DNA of 64,000 nt from an uncultured Clostridia bacterium (GCA_947589355.1 CANPZC010000011.1:7129-71128), one strand, 5' to 3'; positions 1 to 57,760 are shown, counted from the stretch's first letter. Program-made: numbers and translations. The notes: a model not told the origin generated them from the sequence alone.

Positions 1-632
1 TCTTCATTTTGTGCTACTTTTCGGGCTTCCGTAGCAATAGTTGATGCAGCCGACTCAGAATCACTTGCGCCATATGTCAAAATTGGCATTCCTAATATTT
101 GCTCGATAGAACTCTTGATAGATCCGCCACGAACAGAATTCTCATTTAGAAGTTCCTCATATTCAGTAAGCAGTTCACCATCGAAAAGAAAGAAACGGGA
201 TACCTCTTTTGTCATTATTCTTTTAACAAAATGCTCGCTGTCTGCGGGGGATAGAATATTGCCTGATTCGTTTACTTGCAACACCATATGAAGATGATTA
301 TTTGAGGTAGGTTTGTCAACACCGGGCAATACGGCTATTGAACGGACAATGCGATATGCTTTTCCGTTGTTCTCCAAATCAAGTATAACTTTGAATGTGT
401 ATTTTCCTTCGTTCATTCCGGCTTCATTGATAAAAGACAAAAAATTATCAACGTTGCCATCACGATCTTTCACTGTGCCGTTAAGCACGAAATTAAAAGC
501 ATTTAACAGTGTTGTTTTGCCGCGGCCATTCCGTCCCCATACAATGCTGACACCATTTCTCGCTGAAAAATCGACAGATGTTGGATCCTTAAATGGTCCG
601 AAATTCTCGACGGTTATCTTCTTAAACCTCAT
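1..632 (-). CDS. SMC/RecF/DndD-like AAA ATPase, N-terminal part (gene runs off the left edge)
   Basis: Hand translation from ATG at 632 gives MRFKKITVENFGPFKDPTSVDFSARNGVSIVWGRNGRGKTTLLNAF... with Walker A GRNGRGKTT and later RFFLFDGELL. The frame stays open to position 1. GGAGG lies about 9 nt upstream, and the ATG overlaps the stop of the upstream ORF (ATGA). It is absent from the ORF track because there is no stop in the window. Confidence 0.7.
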   Translation of the reverse strand, partial: MRFKKITVENFGPFKDPTSVDFSARNGVSIVWGRNGRGKTTLLNAFNFVLNGTVKDRDGNVDNFLSFINEAGMNEGKYTFKVILDLENNGKAYRIVRSIAVLPGVDKPTSNNHLHMVLQVNESGNILSPADSEHFVKRIMTKEVSRFFLFDGELLTEYEELLNENSVRGGSIKSSIEQILGMPILTYGASDSESAASTIATEARKVAQNE

Positions 633-853
633 TGTTCATCACCTCCGTCAGCTTTAATCTGATTAGAATATTGAATAATCAGTTTTTGCGTTTCACGTTG
701 GCGCCTTGCAGGATCATTTTGATTCTGATTCTGTACATCAATTATCGCGCTAATAACTTCCGCAGGTATATCCGGGTATTTTGCTGCCCGGATACTTTCA
801 AGAGTAGATCTTAATTCATCCAAATTATTCTTCATCTTCTTCATACCCCTCAT
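629..853 (-). CDS. hypothetical small protein (74 aa or shorter, alternative starts at 844 and 835)
   Basis: An ORF wedged between the helicase stop and the ATPase start, with overlaps at both ends. No motif was recognised. Its coding status rests on operon context only. Confidence 0.45.
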   Translation of the reverse strand: MRGMKKMKNNLDELRSTLESIRAAKYPDIPAEVISAIIDVQNQNQNDPARRQRETQKLIIQYSNQIKADGGDEQ

Positions 854-2954
854 TTACTAATTCGTTGTAATTAACTCCAAATTTAAGTGCTATTACTTTT
901 AAGTCCGTGATACATGCAGAACTAAGAGAACTTTTACCAAATTCAATTGCTCTTCCCAGTTCTGAAACCACAATTGATAAGCTCTTATCTTCTTGAGCGC
1001 TTGATTCATGTGGTACTACTATTGCATCATACAAGAACGAAAGATTCTTTCCACTTGATTTTCTCAAAATGCGGCCACGGCGTTGAATGAATTCGCGTGG
1101 GTTCTTTGACGATGCTAAAATAAGCGCGTGTGTTGTAGACGGAATATCCACGCCTTCATCTAAGCACTTTATCGACACAATAACACCGCCGTTTTCCGCA
1201 AAATAACTTAATGTGCTTTCTCTATCGCCGAGCATATCAGCATAATACGCATATGCATCAATACCTTCGTTCCTTATGGCAGTTAGTACCGTCTGCAATT
1301 GTGCTATATCCTCGCAATAAACAAGCCATTTTTGCCCTTCCTTGTAATTCTTCCTCAGAATATCAATTGCAATAGTTACTTTGTTGGCGGCCTTTTTAAG
1401 TATCCTTGCTCTTTCGATCATCATGTGATGCAGAAAAGCATCATCACCTTTCTTTGTATCTCCGCTTCCATGAGACATAGCGAAACGTTTGCTGATTTTC
1501 TTTGTTAACTCATCCCAGTCTGCCTGTTCATCCTGTGTTAGTTCGACACGTTTTGGGTAGTAAAAGTACTCTGTTAAAACACCTTCACGCAAAGCTTTTT
1601 GTAGTGTGTAGGGCGGCTGCAATACAGCCCCAAAATAATCTATGATCGATTGAGTTCCTTCAGGATCACCAAAGCGTTCCGGTGTTGCTGACAACCCAAG
1701 TGCGGATCCATATTTAAGTGCAAAAATTCTACGATGGGTGGGACTTCCCATGTTATGGACCTCGTCAGCTACAACAAAAAGGTGCTCTCCATCGTTTACG
1801 GATCTGATAAACTCCGGCTTTGCCGCTGTGTCCATAATTGCAATAATGATATTGTTGACAGATCCACTCGGTGAAGTCCAAAGAGAAAGATTTCCATTGT
1901 TCTTCCAAGCAATGTTTCCATCTCCACAAAGGAAAACATTAATGTTAATGTCCGTTATTATTCTGCGTATCTCCTTGTTCCAGTGTGCTAAAAGTTCTTT
2001 TGATGGCACCAGAACAAGAACCTTTTTGCCGCGTTCGATCTCATGACGAATAGCAGAGATCGCAATTACCGTTTTCCCACATCCGGTACATCCCTGATAT
2101 ATTGCACGATAGTCAGCATTTTTCCACCCCTCGAGCGCATCTACCTGATGATCTTTCAGTTTGATAATATCGCTGGATTTGTTTGGACGCCACTTTTGCG
2201 CTTTGTCGACGACAACTTTAACCTCATCAAGCAACTGTTCCCAATGATAATCAGCGGTCTTATCTCTGATATATTTTGCCGCAGTTTCCGGCAAATCATG
2301 TATCTCCAAAACATCGTATTCGCCATTCCATACGCGATCGAAGCCAACGAGTATTCCTTTAGAACGTTGAGCATCTTTCCCACCATCCCAGCTTTGGAAA
2401 ACATCTACTGATTCTATATTTCCGTTGTCCGAAAGCCCTTTGAATGTTTCGTTTATTGATCCGCGAAATGCGACAGAATCACCATCTTGATCTATAAATA
2501 TACCGGCTTTATCATGATAGAGACGTTCAATATTCGGATCCTTCCGTTTATTGTCTCTCGCAATTACAAGCTTTATTTCTATAGTTTTATTGGCAATCAA
2601 ACATGCAAATAGTTTTGCTGCCGATGAGATACTATCCTGCTCCATTAATTCAGATAGTTCCTTCTTAAATGATTTCGCAAGCACTTCATCGGTCAACGCT
2701 GCTTTTCCCTCACGAATGGCATCAGCATCTTCTTCTGTTAGGTACGGGGAACAAAGTAATTGCATATGTCCGTTGTTGTTGATGAATTCTTTTAGTGCAC
2801 TCCATGCAATGATATAAATAGTACTTCCAAAATAGCCGGAAATCCTTTTATATATGGAGGCATTTCGCATACATGGTAAATAGAATTCCTTCGCAACGTC
2901 ATCGTTTAATTTGTGGTACGAGCTTTTAAACTCGTATTCTCTTAATTTGCCCAT
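825..2954 (-). CDS. PLD (HKD) nuclease domain fused to an SF2 DEAD/DEAH (ResIII-type) helicase
   Basis: The N-terminal part carries an HKD motif, YHDKAGIFID...GSINET. Helicase motifs follow: I CTGCGKT, II ADEVH, III LSATPER, VI QRRGRILR. ATG at 2954 is preceded by GGAGTGA; the ORF also extends to GTG at 2963, which overlaps the upstream stop. Confidence 0.85.
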   Translation of the reverse strand: MGKLREYEFKSSYHKLNDDVAKEFYLPCMRNASIYKRISGYFGSTIYIIAWSALKEFINNNGHMQLLCSPYLTEEDADAIREGKAALTDEVLAKSFKKELSELMEQDSISSAAKLFACLIANKTIEIKLVIARDNKRKDPNIERLYHDKAGIFIDQDGDSVAFRGSINETFKGLSDNGNIESVDVFQSWDGGKDAQRSKGILVGFDRVWNGEYDVLEIHDLPETAAKYIRDKTADYHWEQLLDEVKVVVDKAQKWRPNKSSDIIKLKDHQVDALEGWKNADYRAIYQGCTGCGKTVIAISAIRHEIERGKKVLVLVPSKELLAHWNKEIRRIITDININVFLCGDGNIAWKNNGNLSLWTSPSGSVNNIIIAIMDTAAKPEFIRSVNDGEHLFVVADEVHNMGSPTHRRIFALKYGSALGLSATPERFGDPEGTQSIIDYFGAVLQPPYTLQKALREGVLTEYFYYPKRVELTQDEQADWDELTKKISKRFAMSHGSGDTKKGDDAFLHHMMIERARILKKAANKVTIAIDILRKNYKEGQKWLVYCEDIAQLQTVLTAIRNEGIDAYAYYADMLGDRESTLSYFAENGGVIVSIKCLDEGVDIPSTTHALILASSKNPREFIQRRGRILRKSSGKNLSFLYDAIVVPHESSAQEDKSLSIVVSELGRAIEFGKSSLSSACITDLKVIALKFGVNYNELVNEGYEEDEE

Positions 2955-2959
2955 AAAAC

Positions 2960-3484
2960 TCACTCCAGTAAAGCTTGAATATCCAACTGTATACGCCGCT
3001 CAATGGCTTTAGTGAGACTTTCCCGCTTTGCGACAACAATTTTTTCCCTATTGCCCTTCTTATAACAGGTAACCACATCTTCCGATAATGCTTGCAGCAT
3101 AGGATCAAGGTAACACTGCAGATTTGCCGAGTAAGCGAATTCCATATGGAAACTTGTATCCCAAAGGACATAAACGCCATCTCTGTCGTTATCAAACGGA
3201 CAAGCATATCCCATTATGAGAGGAATACGATCGTCATCGGTATTGATATGACCGCGCTCACCGCGACCTTGTCCTTCTATGATCATCTGAATTTTATACT
3301 CATCTAATGCACGACCTCCTGGGGGACAGGTACAATTAAATACATAAATTCTCAATTTTCTTCTTGGCATTTTTAAATCAAGCAATAGAGTTTTACTGTT
3401 CATACCAGAGCTCCACACTACTCGATTCCCCAAATCCTCGATTATCAGACCATTTAGTTCTTCTTTGCTAAATCGTGCTGCCAT
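2960..3484 (-). CDS. hypothetical protein, 174 aa, operon partner of the MTases and PLD-helicase
   Basis: A clean ORF with a 12-nt gap to the upstream MTase and a 4-nt overlap with the helicase ORF. No Walker, HKD or MTase motifs. Its core reads RIYVFNCTCPPGGRALDEYKIQ. Confidence 0.7.
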   Translation of the reverse strand: MAARFSKEELNGLIIEDLGNRVVWSSGMNSKTLLLDLKMPRRKLRIYVFNCTCPPGGRALDEYKIQMIIEGQGRGERGHINTDDDRIPLIMGYACPFDNDRDGVYVLWDTSFHMEFAYSANLQCYLDPMLQALSEDVVTCYKKGNREKIVVAKRESLTKAIERRIQLDIQALLE

Positions 3485-3496
3485 AGTTTCACCTCA

Positions 3497-4366
3497 CTAC
3501 CCCTTAACTATAGTTGAGAGACGTTGTTCTGACATAGATACATATTCCGGGAATATGTCAAATCCAATGAACTTTCTATCTAGTACGACAGCTGCTTCTC
3601 CTGTAGTGCCTGAACCAAGCCAAGGGTCAACAACAATATCTCCTATAGAGGTGCAAGCTTTGATATATTTTTCGGGGAGCAAAATGGGTTGAACGGCTTG
3701 GTGCATCGTTTTATTTGGCATCACTCCACATGTAATCACATTCTGAGGCAGCGCACCACGCGGATTTGGCGAAATGCTCTTATTTTTTCTTACATAAGTA
3801 AGCCCGTTCTCTCGTGCTTTATATTCATAATCTTTGTATAGATCCAAACTATGATCTGAATACGGCCTACGTATAGCATCTATGTTTATCTCCCATTTGG
3901 GCGACTTAGAAAACCAAAGGATCTGCTCATATGCATCTTGACATGCAACACGAAGACCGGTTGGTGCAGGGTTACCTTTGACCCATATCTCAATGTCAAC
4001 GCACGAAAAGCCCCATTGCTCTTCTAGCATAATTGCAAGTTTTTCAACAATCAGCGATCTCTTCGACGTTCTGAATGCAGTCTTTTTGCTTCTGTTGGCC
4101 TTTACATTAATTACTAAAAACCCGTCATCAGAAAGCGCAGACTGTGCTCCCTCTATAAAAGGGGTCATAAAATCTAAATAATCATTTTCTTTCCAAACAC
4201 CATAATTTCTTTCCGCATTTGGGTATGGAGGCGATCCATAAATGAGCTTAACAGTTCCTTTTTCTATATCCTTTAGACCGACTGCGCCGTCACAGCAAAG
4301 GAGGCAATAACTTTTATCGTCAAATGTAATCACTGTCATTCCTCCTCTGATATTGAGGCGATCCAT
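3497..4366 (-). CDS. DNA methyltransferase, beta-class N4-cytosine/N6-adenine family (MTase B)
   Basis: Motif IV GSPPYPN lies N-terminal to motif I DPWLGSGTTG. An alternative ATG at 4339 forms an ATGA overlap with the MTase A stop. Confidence 0.9.
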   Translation of the reverse strand: MDRLNIRGGMTVITFDDKSYCLLCCDGAVGLKDIEKGTVKLIYGSPPYPNAERNYGVWKENDYLDFMTPFIEGAQSALSDDGFLVINVKANRSKKTAFRTSKRSLIVEKLAIMLEEQWGFSCVDIEIWVKGNPAPTGLRVACQDAYEQILWFSKSPKWEINIDAIRRPYSDHSLDLYKDYEYKARENGLTYVRKNKSISPNPRGALPQNVITCGVMPNKTMHQAVQPILLPEKYIKACTSIGDIVVDPWLGSGTTGEAAVVLDRKFIGFDIFPEYVSMSEQRLSTIVKG

Positions 4367-5331
4367 GCCTGTCCGAGTTTTTGATAATCAGGGTTAACAT
4401 CAATGCAAAAATACTGTCGTCCATGCTTATGTGCAACAACACCCGTCGTACCAGAACCAGCAAACGGATCTAGTACTATATCTCCAGGGTTACTGCCAGA
4501 AAGGATGAAAAATTCGGCCAGCTTTTCTGGGTAACGAGCAGGATGCTTAATACCCATTTCTTTACAGAGTTTCTGCACAAAACCGTTGCTAGCGGTATTA
4601 CTTACTGAAATTACGCTGCCGGGGTCTGCGCCTCCTTTATTATCCCACGGATGACTTAAATCAAAATTATGTCTGCTTGGACGAGAGTTTTTTTCTCGGC
4701 CTCCACGCTCGACGACTTTTCCATCAATAATATCCATCATGCTTTTGCTGTATGGCTTACGAATTGGATCCATGTTGAATGTCCACTGCTCCGATTTGCT
4801 AAACCAGAAACAGTACTCGTGGGATTTTTTTGTTCTACCCATAGTCCCGCGAGAGAATACGTTTGGAGGTGTTGCAGGATTATGCCAGATATAATCACGA
4901 ACGAGATGAAAGCCGACTTCATCACACAAAACAACGACAAGCTTAAAAACAAATATGTTCTGATATCGTCCATCGAGCTTGTCATTTATATTGAGTACAA
5001 AACTCCCATTCGGTTTTAATACGCGAAAGAATTCTTGTGCTCTTGGCAAAAACCAATCAATATAGTCATCTGGTTTTATTTTCTTTACGACATCACCATA
5101 ATCTTTAATTTGATCTGCGTAGGGAGGTGATGTCATAATTAAATCTATACTGTCATTGGGAACACCGCGCAGCACGTCAAGACAATCCCCACAGATATAT
5201 GCGTCTTGGTATTCCGTTTTCTTGCTATTTTTTGTTTCCATGTCAGTTCTTCCTCTCAAGTCAGCGAAAGAATGTTTTACAATGATCTCGATACTACCAT
5301 ATACTTTGCATGTTTCTTTCAGTTCGTGCAT
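4336..5331 (-). CDS. DNA methyltransferase, beta-class N4-cytosine/N6-adenine family (MTase A)
   Basis: Sequence GDCLDVL...IDLIMTSPPYAD (motif IV) is followed late by DPFAGSGTTG (motif I). An alternative start is M31 at 5241. Confidence 0.9.
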   Translation of the reverse strand: MHELKETCKVYGSIEIIVKHSFADLRGRTDMETKNSKKTEYQDAYICGDCLDVLRGVPNDSIDLIMTSPPYADQIKDYGDVVKKIKPDDYIDWFLPRAQEFFRVLKPNGSFVLNINDKLDGRYQNIFVFKLVVVLCDEVGFHLVRDYIWHNPATPPNVFSRGTMGRTKKSHEYCFWFSKSEQWTFNMDPIRKPYSKSMMDIIDGKVVERGGREKNSRPSRHNFDLSHPWDNKGGADPGSVISVSNTASNGFVQKLCKEMGIKHPARYPEKLAEFFILSGSNPGDIVLDPFAGSGTTGVVAHKHGRQYFCIDVNPDYQKLGQAWIASISEEE

Positions 5332-5466
5332 GAAAATGCCTTCTAACTCAGTTTATCATTTTAACACTATCATATATCCCAAAAACGTGCTTTCATCGGC
5401 AGTTTTTATTTGAATCATTACGAACCGGTTTCATAATGTCAGTGCATTATAGGTTTTCCACAACAC

Positions 5467-5820
5467 TTGCGTATATTATACCACGTTGTTTTGCAAAAGT
5501 CAATATTGTTTGATGAGCGCCTGTGGAAGCTCCAAAAGGAGCTTTTGAAGAAAGCCAATCAGAAAGATGATTATGACGCCGTTGCGAATGAAATACTTCG
5601 GCTTCGTGATATGCGCCGCCAAGCCGAAGTAGACAGCGTTATAAAGGACGAGCAGATGAAACAGATAAACGACCTGCAAGACTTCATAAATAGCCGGCCT
5701 ACTACCATAACGGAGTTTGATGAGGCGCTTGTAAGAAGGCTGATTGAAAAAATCACGGTGTTTGAGGATAGGTTTGCCGTGAGGTTTAAGTCGGGCGTTA
5801 CAATCGATATTGAAACATAA
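5467..5820 (+). pseudogene. 3'-terminal remnant of a large serine recombinase gene (coiled-coil plus C-terminal tail only)
   Basis: The 117 codons end in ...ITEFDEALVRRLIEKITVFEDRFAVRFKSGVTIDIET. This is the typical extreme C-terminus of Firmicute large serine recombinases. No resolvase catalytic or recombinase domain lies upstream, because the upstream space is taken by the MTase operon promoter region. Confidence 0.6.
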
Positions 5821-5866
5821 AAAACACAAGCATCACAGAGCGAAATTCTGGGATGCTTGTTTTTAC
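5814..5866. terminator. bidirectional Rho-independent terminator between convergent ORFs
   Basis: A 9-bp stem acaagcatc/gatgcttgt has T-runs on both strands (TTTT on plus, TTTTTT on minus). Confidence 0.6.
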
Positions 5867-5867
5867 T

Positions 5868-6674
5868 TTACTTCCAGTGCGAAAAAGGCTTAATATCAAT
5901 TATACTTGTCGGTGGAATGTGAACTCCGTTTTTCATAAGAAGAATATGCTCAGACAGCCCACAAAAAGCTGTATCATAAGCCATGATAAGATACTTCAAG
6001 ACTTTATCTTTATCACTCTGCTCTTCATCACCGTCAAAAACAATATCACTGCCTTTAACGTGAGCCGTGATTTCATAAGGAAAATGCGATTGCTCCCACT
6101 CTCCAGATAAATTTAATCTTAACAGGTTGTCAATATTCCATATTATTTCAGGACGGCGATGAACTTGACCAAGATACGGCATACTTTTATCTACAGATAG
6201 AAAACCACATGTGGTGTAATCGTAATAAAACTTTCTGCCAATTAACCAGCATAAATGCTCTTGTGTTTCTGTCATTGGGCATTTTTCTGGACAAAAAGTA
6301 ATATCATATGTCTTCCCATTGCAAGTCAACAATTTGTTATCTAAATTCAAAGTCACACCGTGCTGATCTAAAAAAATTCTAATTTCTGATTCTTTGCAGA
6401 GATATGCATGTTTTAAATCAAAAATTCCATATTTCTTTATTGATGCACATTCATTTGCACTTGTTGTTACATGAAAATATATAAAATCAAAATCAAGATA
6501 GTTCTTTGAAAATTGTCCATAAGTTTTAATTACATCTTCAACTAAATCACCTGTATATCTATATTCTCCTTCACGTCCAACATATTTTTTCCAAGTCGAG
6601 ATATCAACGCCGCTTAATTCTACTAATGTTTTGCGGGCATTTTCAGACGACCTGATATCGTATTTTTTTATCAT
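5868..6674 (-). CDS. hypothetical protein, 268 aa, orphan AT-rich gene
   Basis: A long clean ORF with GGAGGTG 9 nt upstream of the ATG and its own terminator. No family was recognised with confidence. Confidence 0.7.
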   Translation of the reverse strand: MIKKYDIRSSENARKTLVELSGVDISTWKKYVGREGEYRYTGDLVEDVIKTYGQFSKNYLDFDFIYFHVTTSANECASIKKYGIFDLKHAYLCKESEIRIFLDQHGVTLNLDNKLLTCNGKTYDITFCPEKCPMTETQEHLCWLIGRKFYYDYTTCGFLSVDKSMPYLGQVHRRPEIIWNIDNLLRLNLSGEWEQSHFPYEITAHVKGSDIVFDGDEEQSDKDKVLKYLIMAYDTAFCGLSEHILLMKNGVHIPPTSIIDIKPFSHWK

Positions 6675-6683
6675 ATGCCATTA

Positions 6684-6791
6684 CACCTCCGACATCCAAA
6701 CCACAGCTTCAACCCCACCCCAACAACATCCAACCCGCCTACTCAACCCTCTGACATCTTAACAGCCTACCCAACCCTCCAACCAAAACGG
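6684..6791. repeat. C/A-rich (G/T-rich on minus strand) low-complexity tract with repeated CAACCC(T) motifs
   Basis: TAC(T/C)CAACCCTC occurs twice, 28 nt apart. The minus strand reads GGTTGGAGGGTTGGGTAGG...GGGGTGGGG. There is no ORF. It lies immediately upstream of the 268-aa gene. Confidence 0.6.
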
Positions 6792-6891
6792 TTGATATGT
6801 TCCGACAGAGCAGTTTTCACAGTTAATTCACCTCATTAGAACTACCGCCCAAATGCCCAAAAATCTCGTAAATATATCACTTTTTCGGCAA

Positions 6892-8289
6892 TCAGCCCTT
6901 GTCCCTTGACATCAACACCACGCACTCCACATGGCTTGTGCGCGGAAACATATCAACGGCGCAGAGCCTTTGGCAGGTGTAGCCGTACTGCATAAGGCGC
7001 TTTACATCGCGTGCGGCTGTGGCAGGGTCGCAGGATACCATTACTATTCTTTTGGGGGCGGCTTTCGCTATCGTTTCAATAGTCAACTCCGAGCAGCCTT
7101 TTCTCGGCGGATCTACAACTATCACATCGGGTGCGCAGCCGCTTTCACGCAGCCGTGAGAAGACCTCGCCTGCATCGCCGCAGTAAAATTTGGCGTTTTC
7201 TATGCCGTTGCGCGCGGCGTTGCGTTTTGCGTTCTCTACCGCCTGCACCACCTGTTCAACACCTACGATCTTCACATATTTAGCGCGTTTTGCCATTGAA
7301 AGACCTATCGTTCCTGCGCCGCAGTAAAGGTCGGCTATAACATCACCGCTTTGTGGCGCGGCATACTCAAAAGCCTTGGCGTAAAGCCGCTGCGCCTGCG
7401 CGGTGTTCACCTGATAAAACGACAGCGGCGAAAGCTCTATCTCATTGCCGCACATGGTGTCTGTTATAGTGTCACTTCCAAAAAGTGTCACGCACTTTTC
7501 ACCGAGTATAACGTTCGTATTTTTGGGATTTATGTTAAGCACTATGCTCTTTACCTCGGGAAAACTCTGCACTACCGCATTGCACATTAGCGAAAGCTTT
7601 TTTGAAATATCACGCGCGGCAACAATGCACAGCATTATCTCTCCGCTGTTATGCCCCCTACGCAGATAAATGTGCCGCACCTCTCCCCTGCCGCTTTCTT
7701 CGCTGTATGCCGTTATATGCGCTTTTTCCATACATTCAAGGCATACTTTCACAATATCCGAAAACACTTTCGGTTGCAAGGGGCAGTCTTCTATAGGTAT
7801 GACCCTGTGGCTGCGCGAGGCATAAAAACCGCAGGCAAGTTTGCCGCCGACCTGCGTTACCGGGTACTGTGCCTTGTTGCGGTAGCGGTCTGTCTCCTCC
7901 GCTGCAATAATGCCGTCACACTGCGGTGATACGCCTGCAATTCTTTCAAAAGCATCGGTGACGGTTTTAAGCTTCGCCTCACACTCCGCCCTGTAAGAAA
8001 TATGTCTGTAAACGCAGCCGCCGCACCTACCGTAAACGCCGCAATCTGCCTCGATACGAAACGGCGAATGCTCTGTCAGCTTTTCAATTTTACCGTAGCA
8101 ATAATTTTTACACACCTTAACTATCCTGCACTGCACCTCGTCGCCGACAGAAGTAAACGGCACGAACACCGCCATGCCGTTTTCAGCCCTGCCTATGCCG
8201 CTGCCCTCGCCGGTAAGAGAGGTTATTTGCAGCGAAATTATGTCATTTTTTCTAAGCTCTTTCAATACCGAAAAACTCCCCGACTTCAT
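6892..8289 (-). CDS. rlmD: 23S rRNA (uracil-5-)-methyltransferase RlmD/RumA family (TRAM + 4Fe-4S Cys cluster + SAM MTase)
   Basis: It has an N-terminal TRAM-like region, the Cys cluster CGVYGRCGGC, the SAM motif DLYCGAGTIG and a C-terminal VSCDPAT. Confidence 0.9.
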   Translation of the reverse strand: MKSGSFSVLKELRKNDIISLQITSLTGEGSGIGRAENGMAVFVPFTSVGDEVQCRIVKVCKNYCYGKIEKLTEHSPFRIEADCGVYGRCGGCVYRHISYRAECEAKLKTVTDAFERIAGVSPQCDGIIAAEETDRYRNKAQYPVTQVGGKLACGFYASRSHRVIPIEDCPLQPKVFSDIVKVCLECMEKAHITAYSEESGRGEVRHIYLRRGHNSGEIMLCIVAARDISKKLSLMCNAVVQSFPEVKSIVLNINPKNTNVILGEKCVTLFGSDTITDTMCGNEIELSPLSFYQVNTAQAQRLYAKAFEYAAPQSGDVIADLYCGAGTIGLSMAKRAKYVKIVGVEQVVQAVENAKRNAARNGIENAKFYCGDAGEVFSRLRESGCAPDVIVVDPPRKGCSELTIETIAKAAPKRIVMVSCDPATAARDVKRLMQYGYTCQRLCAVDMFPRTSHVECVVLMSRDKG

Positions 8290-9718
8290 TTTTCTTTTCT
8301 ATCATAAGGTCAAAATGCTTGTTGTATTCAAGCGGAAATTTGTAGTTGAATATTCTTTGCAGCCTGCCGCCGCTGCGGTCAACCAGCTTTGTAGAAGCCC
8401 CTGCGCCGACCGCAATTATAGTCTGGTTTTCTTCCATTATGTATACGTTATACAAGCCCTCGTGACCCGGCATTGCCCAGCCTATATTTTCCTGACCGTC
8501 AAGCTGATCTTTCTGCCTGTAAAGATAATACGGAAAATACCCCGAAACTATCAGCCTGTCGGAGGCGTAATCTATCATCTTTTCGGCATCAGCGTTAAGG
8601 TCGTATTCACCGCTGTGGTTCAGGTTCGCGGCGCGTTTTATCGAAAGCGTATGCACAGTGATATTCTCGGGCGCAAGGCTTATAATGCCGTCAACAGTGC
8701 GCTTAAAGCTCTCAAAATCATCTGTCGGCAGCCCTGCAATTATATCGGTATTTATAACATCAAAGCCAAAGCCCTTTGCCATTTCATACGCCTTGAAAAA
8801 CTGCTCGACCGTGTGCTTTCTGCCGATAGCTTTCAGAACATCATCGCTAAGCGTTTGAGGATTTATCGAGATACGCCGCGCGCCGCCGTCATAAATAACG
8901 CGAAGTTTCTGCTCTGTCACCGTGTCAGCCCTGCCTGCTTCAACGGTGTATTCGCGCACCTGCGACATATCAAAACTTTCTGAAATTGTCTTCATTATTG
9001 CTTCTAAATACGCCGCATCAATAGCCGTGGGCGTGCCGCCGCCTATGTACACCGTATCGAGCCGCTTGCCTATTTTTTGCATAAGCTGCCCTGTATACCG
9101 TATCTCGGCGCAGAGGTTTGAAACATAGCTCGGTATCAGCGGCAGACTGCTCTCGACCGACTGCGATACAAAGCTGCAATACGAACACCTCGAAGTACAA
9201 AACGGTATTGAAACATACAGGCTGAACGTGTTGTCGTCAAGGCTCGCGAGGATATCCTCCTGCACCTTTGCCACCGCAAAAGCCATGTTTATTTTCTTGT
9301 CCGAGCAAAGGTATAAATTTTTCAGCCTGTCGCGTATCTGCTCGTCTGAAAGCCCTGCCGCCGCCATCGCGTTTATCTGCTTTACGGGGCGTATGCCTGT
9401 TATTATTCCCCACTGCGGCTTCTTGCCCGTCAGCTTTGAAAGGCAGCGATACAAGTATGCCGCCAACGTAAGTTCGCACTCGCTTTCGTTCTCGCTGAGT
9501 ATTACGCCTGCTTCATTCGCTACCTGACCGTCAAGTCTGCAATACACGAAAAGGCTGGTCATCAACGCTTTCTTTTCGCGCTTTACAAAGCATATGTCGC
9601 CCTCCTGCCCCTCATGGGTAGAAGCTACCGTAAGCTTGAAGCTCTGCGCAGGCAAAAACAGCTTCACCACTGCTTCAAGCTCGTATTTCAAGTCCAGTGA
9701 ACTAAGTATCAGTTTCAT
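8252..9718 (-). CDS. radical SAM protein, HemN/HemZ-type oxygen-independent coproporphyrinogen III oxidase family
   Basis: CxxxCxxC is present in IPFCTSRCSYCSF. The 488-aa length with an N-terminal extension resembles HemZ. Confidence 0.8.
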   Translation of the reverse strand: MKLILSSLDLKYELEAVVKLFLPAQSFKLTVASTHEGQEGDICFVKREKKALMTSLFVYCRLDGQVANEAGVILSENESECELTLAAYLYRCLSKLTGKKPQWGIITGIRPVKQINAMAAAGLSDEQIRDRLKNLYLCSDKKINMAFAVAKVQEDILASLDDNTFSLYVSIPFCTSRCSYCSFVSQSVESSLPLIPSYVSNLCAEIRYTGQLMQKIGKRLDTVYIGGGTPTAIDAAYLEAIMKTISESFDMSQVREYTVEAGRADTVTEQKLRVIYDGGARRISINPQTLSDDVLKAIGRKHTVEQFFKAYEMAKGFGFDVINTDIIAGLPTDDFESFKRTVDGIISLAPENITVHTLSIKRAANLNHSGEYDLNADAEKMIDYASDRLIVSGYFPYYLYRQKDQLDGQENIGWAMPGHEGLYNVYIMEENQTIIAVGAGASTKLVDRSGGRLQRIFNYKFPLEYNKHFDLMIEKKNEVGEFFGIERA

Positions 9719-9742
9719 TTTGTGCTCCTGTTCTCTTTCTGT

Positions 9743-10369
9743 TTATATTCTTTTCAGATAGTAATTGTTCTCTTTCTCAAAGTCAAGGCTCGTCATGTCC
9801 TCGTGCCCGGGGTATACCGTGTAATCTTTATCTATAGCCGCAAGCTTTTTCAGCGACTGCCGCATTGCATTTATATCGCTGCCGGGGAAATCCGTTCTGC
9901 CTATGCTGCCGCGAAAAAGCGTATCGCCGCTGAACATATTATCCCCTGCGATATAGCAAACACTGCCCTGCGTGTGACCGGGCGTGTGCATGACTTTTAT
10001 CTGCACTTCGTCAAGCTGCAAAACGTCGCCGTCAGAAAGCGGCAGAGCATTTTCTACTCTGTCAAAAACGCCGCCCGTCATATTGTTTGCAAGGTTGAGC
10101 CTGCCGTCGGTCAGCATAGCCATATCGCCCGAGTGTATATACACCTTGCAGCCAGACTTTTTTTGCAGCTGTGCCGCGGCTTCTATATGGTCTATATGCC
10201 CGTGTGTCAGAAGTATCATCTTCATCGAAAGTGAACGCCTTTGTATCTCGCGCAGCACAAAGTCTGCGTTTGCGGGCGCATCTACCAAAGCCGCCGAGCC
10301 TTTTTCAGAGGCTATAATATAGCTGTTCGCGCCGCACAGCCCCATCGGCGGAAGTATAAAAATATTCAT
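9743..10369 (-). CDS. MBL-fold metallo-hydrolase
   Basis: It carries the LLTHGHIDH motif plus downstream His/Asp ligands (HTPGHT). Length is 208 aa. Confidence 0.85.
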   Translation of the reverse strand: MNIFILPPMGLCGANSYIIASEKGSAALVDAPANADFVLREIQRRSLSMKMILLTHGHIDHIEAAAQLQKKSGCKVYIHSGDMAMLTDGRLNLANNMTGGVFDRVENALPLSDGDVLQLDEVQIKVMHTPGHTQGSVCYIAGDNMFSGDTLFRGSIGRTDFPGSDINAMRQSLKKLAAIDKDYTVYPGHEDMTSLDFEKENNYYLKRI

Positions 10370-25332: not shown

Positions 25333-25417
25333 TGGTGGGAGAGGACGGATTCGAACCATCGAAGCGAAAAGCAACAGATTTACAGTCTGCCCCCTTTGGC
25401 CACTCGGGAACTCTCCC
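25333..25417 (-). tRNA. tRNA-Tyr (GTA), long variable arm, encoded CCA
   Basis: The reverse complement reads GGGAGAGTTCCCGAGTGGCCAAAGGGGGCAGACTGTAAATCTGTTGCTTTTCGCTTCGATGGTTCGAATCCGTCCTCTCCCACCA. The cloverleaf folds and the anticodon loop is CTGTAAA. Confidence 0.9.
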
Positions 25418-25706: not shown

Positions 25707-25782
25707 TGGAGCTGGTGGACGGACTTGAACCCCCGACCTGCTGATTACAAATCAGCTGCTCTACCGACTGAGCTACACCAGC
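25707..25782 (-). tRNA. tRNA-Thr (TGT), encoded CCA
   Basis: The reverse complement reads GCTGGTGTAGCTCAGTCGGTAGAGCAGCTGATTTGTAATCAGCAGGTCGGGGGTTCAAGTCCGTCCACCAGCTCCA. The anticodon loop is TTTGTAA. The T-stem shows one G-G mismatch. Confidence 0.85.
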
Positions 25783-30749: not shown

Positions 30750-30826
30750 TGGTCGAGGCGACAGGACTTGAACCTGCGGCATCTTGGTCCCAAACCAAGC
30801 ACTCTACCAAACTGAGTTACGCCTCG
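30750..30826 (-). tRNA. tRNA-Pro (TGG), encoded CCA
   Basis: The reverse complement reads CGAGGCGTAACTCAGTTTGGTAGAGTGCTTGGTTTGGGACCAAGATGCCGCAGGTTCAAGTCCTGTCGCCTCGACCA. The anticodon loop is TTTGGGA. Confidence 0.9.
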
Positions 30827-49719: not shown

Positions 49720-53793
<4,074 letters not shown>

Positions 53794-53846: not shown

Positions 53847-56800
53847 TTATTCTTCGTCAATATCTCCGTCCTGACCATCGTCTTCGTCCGAAAGGAAATC
53901 GTCTTCGTCGTCTTCATCGTCGATATAATCGTCATCGCCCTCGGCATCGTCGTATTCTTCAAGTCCGTCGTCGAAATCTTCAAGATCATCGGCATCAACG
54001 TACTGATCACCCGTGCCGTCATCTACAAACGATACTTCATCGCTTATTACAGACTCACGCGGAGGAATATCATCATCGTCAAAGCTCTGCTTTATGTCGA
54101 TCTCCTCGTTGTTTTCGTCAAGCACTTTCATGTTAAGGCAAAGCGACTGCATTTCCTTTATCAGTACCTTGAACGATTCGGGTATGCCTGCCTTAGGCAC
54201 GTTCTGACCCTTGACTATAGCTTCGTAGGTCTTTACTCTGCCCACGGTATCGTCCGACTTCACCGTCAGTATCTCCTGAAGCGTGTAAGCCGCGCCGTAT
54301 GCTTCCAGAGCCCATACTTCCATTTCACCGAATCTTTGTCCGCCGAACTGCGCTTTACCGCCGAGCGGCTGCTGAGTTACCAGCGAATAAGGACCTACCG
54401 AACGCGCGTGTATCTTATCGTCAACAAGGTGGTGGAGTTTAAGATAATACATATAACCTACAGTTATGCGGTTATCGAACTTCTCGCCCGTTCTTCCATC
54501 GTAAAGCACCGTCTTGCCGTCTTCGGGCAGACCTGCTTCGCGGAAACATTCTCTTATATCAGCCTCATGCGCGCCGTCAAATACAGGCGTCATGATGTTC
54601 CAGCCGAGTTTCTTTGCAGCCATGCCGAGATGTACTTCAAGCACCTGACCGATATTCATACGCGACGGAACGCCGAGGGGGTTTAGGCATATATCAAGCG
54701 GTGTGCCGTCTTCCAAAAACGGCATATCCTCCTGCGGCAGTATGCGTGAAACAACGCCCTTGTTGCCGTGGCGGCCCGCCATTTTGTCGCCGACCGATAT
54801 TTTACGCTTCTGCGCGATATAGCACCTTACCAGCTTGTTTACGCCCGGTGCAAGCTCATCGCAGTTATCTCTTGTAAATATCTTGACGTCTATAATAACG
54901 CCTGCCTCGCCGTGCGGAACTTTAAGAGAGCTGTCTCTTACTTCTCTTGCTTTCTCGCCGAATACCGCTCTGAGCAGTCTTTCCTCGGCGGTAAGCTCTG
55001 TTTCGCCCTTAGGCGTTACCTTGCCTACCAAAATATCGCCCGCTCTTACCTCAGCGCCTATTCTGATTATACCGTTCTCATCGAGGTCTTTCAGCGCATC
55101 GTCGCCAACGTTCGGTATATCTCTTGTTATCTCTTCCGCGCCGAGCTTTGTATCGCGGCATTCTATCTCATATTCTTCTATATGGATAGAAGTATACTTA
55201 TCCTGCTTTACAAGGTTCTCATTGAGCAGAACAGCGTCTTCGTAGTTGTAACCCTCCCATGTCATGAAGCCTATAAGGGCATTCTTGCCGAGAGATATCT
55301 CACCGTTGCAGGTGGCAGGGCCGTCTGCTATTACCTGATGAGCCTCTATCCTTTCGCCCTTGTCAACTATAGGTCTTTGGTTGGTGCAAGTGCCTGCGTT
55401 GGATCTCTTGAACTTGATAAGGTCGTAGGTGTGCTGTTCGCCGCTGTCCTCGCGTACTACTATCTTGTCAGCGCTTACGCTCTCAACAACGCCTGCCGCG
55501 GTAGAAACCACCGCAACGCCCGAATCGAGGCACGCTTTATACTCCATACCCGTGCCGACTATAGGGGCTTCCGTTTTCAGCAGAGGCACTGCCTGCCTTT
55601 GCATATTAGAGCCCATAAGCGCACGGTTCGCGTCATCGTTTTCCAAAAACGGTATCATAGCAGTTGCAACTGATACGACCATCTTCGGCGATACGTCCAT
55701 GAAGTCTATCTTGTTTTTGTCTATTTCAAGTATCTGGTCACGGAAACGACCCTTTACCTTGTCGTTTGCAAATTTGCCGTCCTCGGTAAGCGGTTCGTTA
55801 GCCTGCGCTATCATATAGTTATCCTCTGTATCGGCTGTCATATAAACAACTTCGTCGGTAACTACGCCCGTTTCCTTGTCAACACGGCGGTAAGGCGCTT
55901 CTATAAATCCGTACTTGTTTATCCTTGCAAACGAAGCAAGATAGGATATAAGTCCTATATTAGGGCCTTCCGGAGTTTCTATCGGACACATTCTTCCGTA
56001 ATGGGAATAGTGTACGTCACGAACTTCAAATCCTGCTCTGTCACGAGAAAGACCGCCGGGGCCCAAAGCCGAAAGTCTTCTCTTATGAGTAAGCTCCGCA
56101 AGGGGGTTTGTCTGATCCATGAACTGCGAGAGCGGCGATGATCCGAAAAACTCCTTTATCGCAGCTGTTATAGGCTTTATATTTATCAGCGATGCAGGTG
56201 TCAGAGAGACCGCGTCCTGCGTCTGAATATTCATTCTTTCGCGAACTACCTTTTCCATTCTGGTAAAGCCTATCCTGAACTGGTTCTGCAAAAGCTCACC
56301 CACGCATCTTATACGTCTGTTGCCCAGGTGGTCTATGTCGTCAACATCGCCCACGCCGTCTATAAGATTGAGATAATAAGAGATAGAAGCTATAATATCA
56401 TCTACCGTTATATGCTTTGGAACAAGGTCGTCAGCACGTCTCTTTATCTCATCAATAAGCTCGTCCGCCTCGGTGTTTTCAAGTATCTCTTTCAGCACCG
56501 GGAACGATACCTTTTCATTTATTCCGTAAGGTTCAAGGTCGCCCTCAACATAGCCGTTTATATCGACCATGCCGTTGCCTATTATCTTTACTTCCTTGGT
56601 CTCTGTCTTCAGTACCAGCTCACCTGCGGCGTTGGGGTAGTATTCCTTTACTTCAACGTTTACATACGCTTCCATAACGCCTGCCTGCTCTATTTCCTGA
56701 GCAAGCTTTTTGTCAACGGTGTCGCCCGCATCAGCCATAAGTTCGCCCGTCATGCTGTTTACAACGGGTCTTGAAAGCTTTTTGCCTGCAAGTCTCTGCG

Positions 56801-57668
56801 CTATGCCGAGCTTTTTGTTGTACTTGTATCTTCCGAACCTGCAAAGGTCATATCTCTTGGCATCAAAGAACAGATTGTTAAGGTGTGTCTGAGCGCTTTC
56901 AACTGTCGGCGGTTCACCCGGACGAAGCTTTCTGTATATCTCAAGCAAAGCCTCGTTGCGGAAAGTCTCCGAGTCGGGATATATCTCGGCATCACGCTGC
57001 AAAATTGTCTGCTCCAGCCTCTCGTCATTGCCGAAAAGTTCTGCTATCTCATCGTTAGAGCCATAGCCCAGCGCTCTTATAAATACGGTAAGGGGTATCT
57101 TTCTGTTTTTGTCTATACGCACCCACGTGCAGCGGTTGGCGTCCATTTCGTATTCAAGCCATGCGCCTCTGTTAGGTATTATCTGCGACTTGAACAGATC
57201 CGTACCCGACTTATCCTTATCGCATGAAAAATACACGCCCGGCGAACGCACCAGCTGCGATACCACAACACGCTCCGCGCCGTTTATAACGAACGTGCCG
57301 CTGTCGGTCATCAGAGGGAAATCGCCCATGAATACTTCCGACTTGATAAGGCTGCCCGTTTCGGTGTTTCTCAGCTGTGTTTCCACCATAAGTTTTGCGG
57401 CATAGGTAACGTCTCTTTCCTTGCACTCCGCTATGGTATATTTCAGCTTGTCGTCAAAACGGAAGTTTGTAAAGGTAAGCTCAAAAGTACCGTTATAGTC
57501 CGTTATAACGGGCATATCGCGGAATACCTCCCTCAGACCCTCCGTAATAAACCAATTATACGAATTTTTCTGCACTTCGATAAGGTTGGGCATTTCAAGT
57601 ACCTCATTGATCTTAGCGAAGCTTTTTCGCACATTCTTGCCAAGTGTTACGTCCTTGACATTCACCAT
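53847..57668 (-). CDS. rpoB: DNA-directed RNA polymerase subunit beta (1273 aa, polyacidic C-terminal tail)
   Basis: The start is [10 protein letters not shown], with AAGGAGTGA upstream. Conserved blocks include [13 protein letters not shown]. The C-terminal ~80 aa are almost all D/E. Confidence 0.97.
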
Positions 57669-57760
57669 AGGCTGATCACTCCTTACATTAGATTTATGGT
57701 TTAGACCGCGGCATATTTTTCGCCGCAAGGTGCTAATTTTCCATTATAATACATTGTACA

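Follow-up and report, generated by a model that had tools for sequence, protein, structure and literature searches.

Background

The pbeABCD genes were named by Xiong et al. (2019) in haloarchaea, where they are paired with DndCDEA phosphorothioation (PMC6459918). All four pbe genes are required for antiviral defence, PbeA only partly in the haloarchaeal assay, and the PbeB homologue is essential in this phosphorothioate-linked system. A modified virus escapes; otherwise viral replication is blocked without cleavage visible on Southern blots, and deletion of dnd is non-toxic and abolishes defence. In the same work, 155 of 320 dnd-less pbeAC pairs lay near methyltransferase (MTase) genes, and a pairing with methylation was suggested; 165 of 553 PbeABCD modules were solitary, with no modification gene nearby. 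Here we analyse a stretch of 64,000 nucleotides from an uncultured Clostridia bacterium (GCA_947589355.1, CANPZC010000011.1:7129-71128), referred to below as the window. The operon at its left end is quite probably a methylation-based PbeABCD defence system, anchored on a 'CxC' ABC ATPase and a DndE protein and carried on a small, decayed integrative island.

Two later papers bear on these genes. In a re-annotation by the Aravind laboratory, PbeA combines an HKD endoDNase with an SF2 helicase and PbeB is a fast-evolving small protein (PMC10853773, section 16). PbeC is a 'CxC' zinc-hook ABC ATPase sister to DndD, and PbeD is its cognate DndE (PMC10853773, citing a 2020 ABC-ATPase classification). 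The same paper lists an arrangement of methylase, MTaX1, HKD-SF2 protein, small protein, CxC ATPase and DndE, and proposes that it discriminates self from non-self by modification (Fig. 4A-iv). A 2025 review states that the nature of the Pbe restriction event 'remains obscure' (PMC12707154).

Layout of the operon

The locus is one co-oriented defence operon of seven genes in the order MT1–MT2–MTaX1–PbeA–PbeB–PbeC–PbeD, all on the minus strand (Table 1). The initial annotation, made from the window alone, had described a six-gene operon. Its six tightly packed minus-strand open reading frames (ORFs) at 1-5331 are all present, as are the junction tetranucleotides it quoted (ATGA at 4336-4339, GTGA at 2960-2963 and ATGA at 629-632). 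The single operon also holds, but the number of genes does not: the sixth gene is cut by the left window edge and a seventh lies beyond it. Both were recovered by the leftward extension that the initial annotation had proposed, from contigs almost or fully identical to the window (L001, 99.9% over window positions 1-10181; L002, 100% over 1-5641), which continue leftwards. They yield a complete pbeC (L001 9550-11571) followed by a 117-aa gene overlapping it by 8 nt. The sequence motifs quoted for the methylases, the nuclease-helicase and the truncated ATPase were likewise all found again.

Table 1. Features of the operon (positions in the window unless stated)
Feature	Position	Strand	Length	Remarks
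Candidate sigma-70-type promoter	5475-5503	-		TTGACT-17 nt-TATAAT, extended TG, 11/12 consensus positions; consensus match only
Methylase 1 (MT1)	4336-5331	-	331 aa	Pfam N6_N4_Mtase
Methylase 2 (MT2)	3497-4339	-	278-280 aa	ORF start alternatively 4366 (289 aa); Pfam N6_N4_Mtase
MTaX1-domain protein	2960-3484	-	174 aa	Pfam PF20296
PbeA	825-2963	-	709-712 aa	PADLOC PbeA
PbeB-type small protein	629-853	-	68-74 aa	Pfam PF20306 Sp-DndD, borderline
PbeC, N-terminal part	1-632	-	210 residues	PADLOC PbeC; complete gene 673 aa
PbeD	L001 11564-11917 (left of window)		117 aa	DndE fold in predicted structure

On identical contigs, gene callers place three starts differently, at GTG 4333 for MT2 (278 aa), ATG 2954 for PbeA (709 aa) and ATG 835 for the small protein (68 aa), and these starts are better placed behind GGAG(G) ribosome-binding sites. 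The intergenic spacings then become +2, +12, +5, -11, -4 and -8 nt in gene order, and the packing is operon-like with either set of starts. The 709-aa form of PbeA is recorded on seven contigs, the databases starting the protein at an ATG three codons downstream of the 712-aa start. The true start of MT1 may be an internal methionine at residue 31, since its homologues measure 286-310 aa.

The promoter-like site about 144 nt upstream of MT1 is the best such site in positions 1-7000 and is found again at L001 4679-4707. Within the window part of the operon there is no same-strand terminator-like site; a weak one (6-pair stem) occurs within pbeC on L001, and a hairpin with a T-run beyond PbeD is a candidate for the end of the operon. 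Chance resemblance is no concern in the assignments below, because the larger proteins all give very strong profile matches.

The nuclease-helicase PbeA

The PADLOC model PbeA PDLC02707 matches residues 7-680 of the protein at E = 1.4e-201, covering model positions 2-663 of 672, and the top of the 23 PADLOC families that match PbeA consists of five PbeA models. The helicase core is recognised by Pfam ResIII (E = 5.3e-19) and Helicase_C, with archaeal XPB (E = 4e-26) and SauUSI (3.9e-15) as the nearest solved cores. TIGR04095 (dnd_restrict_1, 'DNA phosphorothioation system restriction enzyme') reaches 327.6 bits against a cut-off of 600. The protein holds one HKD motif only (HDKAGIFID...GSINET at 147-170), followed by helicase motifs I (GCGKT, 291), II (DEVH, 397), III (SAT, 422) and VI (QRRGRILR, 624). 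This matches the earlier description of the effector as a PLD-family (HKD) nuclease fused to an SF2 motor, and PbeA is best read from its sequence as an N-terminal HKD nuclease domain joined to an XPB/ResIII-like SF2 helicase or translocase. The HKD domain is picked up by the motif itself, by NF042964 and by PADLOC PLD_Helicase; PF13091 detects it only in two homologues.

The residues of the HKD and helicase motifs are invariant among 22 PbeA homologues, down to 50% identity, which argues that both activities are used. BfiI (PMC2853115), SauUSI and MtsD each have one HKD motif per chain and act as dimers with a shared active site. With its single HKD motif, PbeA presumably pairs in the manner of BfiI, two chains sharing one active site.

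The two methylases

Both methylases match Pfam N6_N4_Mtase (E = 1.1e-47 for MT1 and 2.8e-39 for MT2). They carry motif IV before motif I, namely TSPPYAD (SPPY at residue 68) and DPFAGSGTT (288) in MT1, and GSPPYPN (SPPY at 36) and DPWLGSGTT (238) in MT2, and are therefore beta-permuted. The best solved relative of MT1 is the N4-cytosine enzyme M.PvuII (1boo), at E = 1.3e-51 over the full length, and the adenine enzymes CcrM and M.RsrI follow far behind; M.PvuII is also the best solved relative of MT2 (E = 3.2e-19). To judge by these relatives, both are most probably N4-cytosine enzymes, in line with the beta-class, likely N4-cytosine assignment first given to them. The string YGSPPYPN is unchanged in all 30 labelled MT2 orthologues.

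The MTaX1 protein

The 174-aa protein matches Pfam PF20296, MTaX1 ('methylase-associated X1'), at E = 2.9e-19. Its homologues share an invariant motif, N-C-T-x-P-P-G-G-R-x-L-D-E-Y-K-I-Q, which likely marks a functional surface. A reading of its D-E-Y-K residues as a PD-(D/E)xK site was rejected, the residues being contiguous and no restriction-endonuclease fold being recovered. Fold searches with an AlphaFold model (pLDDT 91.2, pTM 0.88) gave no credible neighbour in the PDB (best probability 0.15, template-modelling (TM) score below 0.25) or in the viral BFVD, so that MTaX1 appears, on the model, to be a structurally uncharacterised domain. It is the least understood component of the system.

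MTaX1 adjoins PbeA in most of 78 related loci (see below). In two genomes, a Candidatus Limiplasma metagenome-assembled genome (MAG) and a Bacteroidales MAG, it is fused to MT2 in one 442-aa protein (L021 8664-9992 and L031 8662-9990). We regard these fusions as direct evidence that MTaX1 works with the methylase. N-terminal extensions are seen in two further MTaX1 proteins, of about 285 residues in L007 and about 175 in L055. Two close relatives of the window MTaX1, 91% and 90% identical to it, are recorded on 297 and 134 contigs respectively.

PbeB, PbeC and PbeD

The window fragment of PbeC matches PADLOC PbeC at E = 5.2e-71, against 2.4e-17 for DndD, and the best 25 of its 130 PADLOC matches are all PbeC or DndD. 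The complete protein from L001 reaches E = 1.3e-173 with PADLOC PbeC over residues 1-638 of 673. With the DndD model TIGR03185 it gives E = 2.2e-38 and 132 bits, below the cut-off of 246. The fragment contains the Walker A motif GRNGRGKTT and the string FFLFDGE; the complete protein has a CPVC zinc hook at residue 345, and a mid-length CxxC pair is present in all 65 full-length orthologues. PbeC is thus a 'CxC' ABC ATPase of the sister clade of DndD, with a zinc hook instead of an SMC hinge. Of the original label 'DndD/SMC-like ATPase', the likeness to DndD is borne out by the PbeC profile; the protein is not strictly SMC-like, having the CxxC zinc hook and no hinge.

PbeB is a small protein rich in glutamine, asparagine and charged residues. 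Its ORF overlaps both neighbours, PbeA and PbeC, and stands where PbeB stands in the published PbeABCD, a position kept in related loci; 65 PbeB-like ORFs were labelled by phmmer in the loci fetched. RefSeq names the equivalent protein 'DNA modification system-associated small protein', and Pfam describes Sp-DndD, its nearest family, as a small protein of certain Dnd DNA modification systems.

The 117-aa protein is taken to be PbeD because its predicted fold matches only DndE. The AlphaFold model (pLDDT 88.6, 17 homologues as input) consists of two strand-helix-helix units. Its 16 best fold matches in the PDB are all DndE (7x4e, 4lrv, 5wtu), over the full length, with probabilities of 0.94-1.0 and TM scores of 0.50-0.70; matches ranked below DndE are noise. 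Profiles built from 18 sequences and from 60 diverse members gave no match when compared with the PDB.

Conservation across genomes

A scan of GTDB, with one genome per species, against a PbeA alignment gave 78 loci, in which ORFs were called and labelled with the seven query proteins. The loci were retrieved by two PbeA peptide patterns, which confines the linkage statistics to this subfamily of PbeA. The order MTase(s)–MTaX1–PbeA–small ORF–PbeC–ORF of about 120 aa recurs among them in both bacteria and archaea, in Bacillota, Bacteroidota, Actinomycetota, Pseudomonadota, Planctomycetota, Patescibacteria (a MAG) and Bathyarchaeia. In all 62 loci that extend 3 kb or more downstream, PbeC comes immediately after PbeA, and a same-strand ORF of 100-160 aa is next after PbeC in 56 of these. 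The initial annotation had allowed that the genes for the 74-aa protein and the ATPase might form a separate unit. The strict succession of PbeA and PbeC contradicts this, as PbeA, PbeB, PbeC and PbeD stay together; the module boundary lies instead between MTaX1 and PbeA. What is exchanged is the modification module, made up of methylases here and of DndCDEA elsewhere.

Among the 60 loci that include 3 kb or more of upstream DNA, 59 have an MTase nearby. Motif IV takes the form SPP[YF] in 90 of the 91 linked MTases (65 SPPY, 25 SPPF) and reads DPPF in the remaining one. The tandem MT1-MT2 pair is typical of Bacillota and Bacteroidota, and tblastn of gaps recovered MT2 in 8 further loci without a called MT2 ORF. 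Actinomycetota have a single SPPF methylase, often on the opposite strand. In other genomes the cassette sits in other contexts, including plasmids beside integrases, and its RefSeq annotation is generic. The nearest genome to the window locus is a rabbit-gut MAG. Near-full-length PbeA relatives (31% identity) are encoded in two unannotated 'Bacteriophage sp.' records from human faeces (MT835493.1 and MT835506.1). Pbe-type modules may also be carried by phages or prophages.

The island and the rest of the window

The cassette region has a G+C content of 0.39-0.42, compared with 0.48-0.50 beyond about position 6900. The island is about 8.8 kb long and has entered a rumA-like TRAM/uracil-5-methyltransferase gene (6892-8289) at its 3' end. 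A second copy of the final 248 bp of this gene (6916-7162), 93.5% identical, lies on the far side of the island at L001 12130-12376, where it forms a gene fragment of 96 aa. Such a direct repeat of a gene's 3' end is, as read from the sequence, the signature of an integrative element carrying a replacement gene end. A 117-aa ORF on the plus strand (5467-5820) preserves only the C-terminal part of a large serine recombinase (Pfam DUF4368, E = 3.8e-5; PHROG 95 positions 474-565 of 651), probably the decayed recombinase of the island. The candidate promoter of the operon lies within this remnant, on the other strand.

The island also carries a 268-aa ORF on the minus strand (5868-6674), with a hairpin and T-run beyond it (about 5822-5866) and no match in Pfam, PADLOC, NCBIfam or PHROGs. 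We rejected this gene as an eighth component: it has no family match, occurs only in contigs of the same strain, is absent from the other 78 loci, and is parted from the operon by the opposite-strand recombinase remnant and the hairpin. It could be an independent passenger gene. The window from 9000 to 64000 looks like ordinary chromosome. Two very long ORFs (49720-53793 and 53847-57728) are probably RNA polymerase beta' and beta, and there are three tRNA genes (25336-25417, 25710-25782 and 30753-30826).

Comparison with known systems

The initial annotation had found that the locus fits none of restriction Types I-IV. It is nevertheless not an unclassified system: four of the seven genes are PbeABCD in the published order, and the version with methylase and MTaX1 is listed in PMC10853773 and was foreshadowed in PMC6459918. 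Component by component, the window locus agrees with the methylase variant described there. Its four core genes are those of PbeABCD, equivalent to the 'CxC ABC ATPase-DndE anchored system', in the same order, and the profile matches of PbeA and PbeC are full length. The difference lies in the mark, which is phosphorothioation in the haloarchaeal systems (Haloterrigena/Natrinema), whereas the window locus has two putative N4-cytosine methylases and MTaX1 instead; no dnd modification gene occurs on the island or in as much of its flanks as L001 and L002 cover.

Plasmid copies linked to phosphorothioation ('DNA phosphorothioation system restriction enzyme') have PbeA proteins about 30-34% identical to that of the window. 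Their dnd_assoc_4 protein has 152 aa, compared with 117 aa for the window type of PbeD, and is unrelated to it in sequence. One relative of this phosphorothioate type is found on the Pseudanabaena galeata plasmid pPg_01 (L085 12706-18860). There PbeA is annotated from its helicase half only, and the 152-aa 'DNA phosphorothioation-associated protein 4' (TIGR04062) is parted from the ATPase by inserted genes.

In DndBCDE-DndFGH and Ssp, as here, the search for target sites on DNA is attributed to an ATPase/DndE pair. PbeC belongs to the sister group of DndD, and PbeD has the DndE fold in its predicted structure. In contrast to these systems, the window locus is without DndA, DndC, DndFGH and SspE, and its mark would be base methylation.

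MANTIS (Gao_RL, MtsABCD) likewise combines a methylase self-mark, a separate ATPase recognition complex and a dimeric PLD-nuclease/SF2 effector. This effector has one shared active site and acts downstream of an ATPase/MTase recognition complex (bioRxiv 10.64898/2026.09.23.753747). In MANTIS, however, the ATPase is an AAA+ protein of the ORC/Cdc6 type, and it is accompanied by a DUF3870 protein and a large N6-adenine methylase of the BREX type. The window locus has an ABC/zinc-hook ATPase, a DndE-fold protein, MTaX1 and two small methylases, probably of the N4-cytosine type, and profile searches found no AAA+ ORC/Cdc6 or DUF3870 gene in it. PbeA is not an MtsD orthologue, with 68.9 bits for NF042964 (phospholipD_antiphage) against a cut-off of 1100; PADLOC PLD_Helicase matches residues 22-183 only (E = 1.8e-10).

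Type III restriction-modification (Mod/Res) also has a beta-class methylase and an SF2 'ResIII' motor-nuclease. This assignment was rejected, as the nuclease here is an N-terminal HKD domain and not a C-terminal PD-(D/E)xK domain, and the methylases are M.PvuII-like SPPY enzymes and not an N6-adenine Mod; the locus also adds PbeB, PbeC, PbeD and MTaX1. SauUSI is a modification-dependent (Type IV) and autonomous enzyme, unlike the window system. Hma and MADS, both named as possible identities by the initial annotation, are not matched. No Hma model is among the 23 PADLOC families on PbeA. Among NCBIfam models at E of at most 1, MADS is represented only by MAD3 for PbeC (E = 0.46, 9.6 bits against a cut-off of 420), and no MADS model reaches E of 0.01 or less for the six window proteins (for PbeA, among the best 25 of 30 families). 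DISARM was rejected on profile scores.

A possible mechanism

An NTP-driven, methylation-gated, restriction-like mechanism was proposed for the locus at the outset, and the literature predicts the same for this arrangement. The two M.PvuII-like beta-class methylases would place N4-methylcytosine (m4C or 4mC) on host DNA; their family is clear, and the target base is strongly suggested. As a pair, they would most likely serve the two strands of one asymmetric site. MTaX1 may work physically with MT2, as its adjacency and the fusions suggest, and would then serve it as a helper or specificity factor or else read the mark. PbeC, a coiled-coil ATPase, and PbeD could form an ATP-driven complex that scans DNA and recognises sites, a role suggested by the DndD-DndE homology and the strict gene pairing. 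In this complex PbeD would be, according to its model, a double ribbon-helix-helix protein of the DndE fold. The complex would then license PbeA on unmarked incoming DNA. PbeA would dimerise to build one PLD active site while its SF2 motor translocates on DNA, and the foreign DNA would be cleaved or nicked, or at least its replication blocked. By analogy with the phosphorothioate-linked homologue, PbeB may be an essential subunit or a regulator.

Several observations weigh against this reading or limit it. PbeB falls just below threshold with Sp-DndD (26.4 bits, cut-off 27.2). The link of PbeD to DndE is at the level of the predicted fold only. PbeD itself has no match in Pfam, PADLOC, NCBIfam or PHROGs. 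A DndE Pfam match was found in one of 60 members of its family, at E = 0.043, and hhalign found no profile similarity with the phosphorothioate-linked dnd_assoc_4 (probability 0.6%). The Pfam PLDc models miss the HKD domain in the window PbeA, sequence alone does not decide between N4-cytosine and N6-adenine as the methylation target, and the linkage counts speak for one PbeA subfamily. In the Pbe system that has been tested, there was no visible cleavage of viral DNA, and loss of the modification was non-toxic and abolished defence (PMC6459918), which is unlike classical restriction. Our literature search turned up no experiments on Pbe systems linked to methylases, and everything past the family assignment rests on inference.

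Alternative explanations

The same findings on the tested system speak for a modification-dependent, or licensed, defence. Here Pbe would be inert without host m4C and would arrest the replication of unmarked DNA without cutting it, the resident N4-methylcytosine, perhaps read by MTaX1, being needed for assembly or activity. That deletion of dnd is harmless to the host and abolishes protection, with no viral cleavage on Southern blots (PMC6459918), fits such a mode. It also agrees with MTaX1 as a conserved extra of the methylase-linked versions, proposed to discriminate modified DNA (PMC10853773). However, the invariance of the catalytic HKD residues throughout the family argues that nuclease chemistry is in use, and PbeA was only partly needed in the haloarchaeal assay, so that the absence of visible cleavage may reflect the assay. 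Moreover, MTaX1 is fused to the methylase and not to PbeA, PbeC or PbeD, which fits a role in modification better than one in licensing. We therefore consider this explanation unlikely, though worth keeping in mind. Equally doubtful is its more specific form, in which MTaX1 reads or helps write m4C, the ATPase/DndE pair compares marked with unmarked DNA, and the HKD-helicase halts replication without overt double-strand breaks. If true, it would be a self/non-self discrimination distinct from Types I-IV, BREX and DISARM, and it would be easy to study here because the mark is a simple methyl group and not a phosphorothioate.

The small protein PbeB, fast-evolving and mostly polar as expected of a trigger interface or decoy, brings up abortive infection, which is offered as an alternative in PMC10853773 (section 16). 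PbeB would restrain PbeA until a phage trigger removes or modifies it, and PbeA would then destroy host and phage DNA, the methylases only limiting background self-damage. We judge this improbable: a modified virus fully escapes in the tested homologue (PMC6459918), which points to marking of the target DNA and not to sensing of infection, and the methylase linkage in 59 of 60 loci would be needless for a pure suicide module. Finally, PbeABCD is also found with Dnd genes or solitary (165/553; PMC6459918), and PADLOC labels both methylases generic Type II MTases, as if an ordinary Type II or orphan methylase pair merely stood beside an independent PbeABCD. Such a chance neighbourhood is very hard to reconcile with gaps of 2-12 nt, a single promoter-like site and the lack of an internal terminator-like site in the window part. 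The order MTase(s)-MTaX1-PbeA is kept across seven phyla, a single type (SPP[YF], as above) accounts for the linked methylases, and the ORFs of the island, taken from the window and the identical contigs, include no gene for a cognate Type II endonuclease.

Significance

Comparative genomics had already described this architecture, and the locus adds no new category to it. What it offers is a methylation-coupled PbeABCD system that is compact, intact and apparently common. A methyl mark is far easier to follow and manipulate than phosphorothioate, which makes the cassette practical for settling the Pbe mechanism. Questions that could be addressed with it include whether PbeA cleaves DNA, what the ATPase/DndE pair recognises, what MTaX1 does and why there are two methylases. 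In genetic work on gut Clostridia, a barrier of this kind, based on 4mC, would let only pre-methylated DNA through in transformation.

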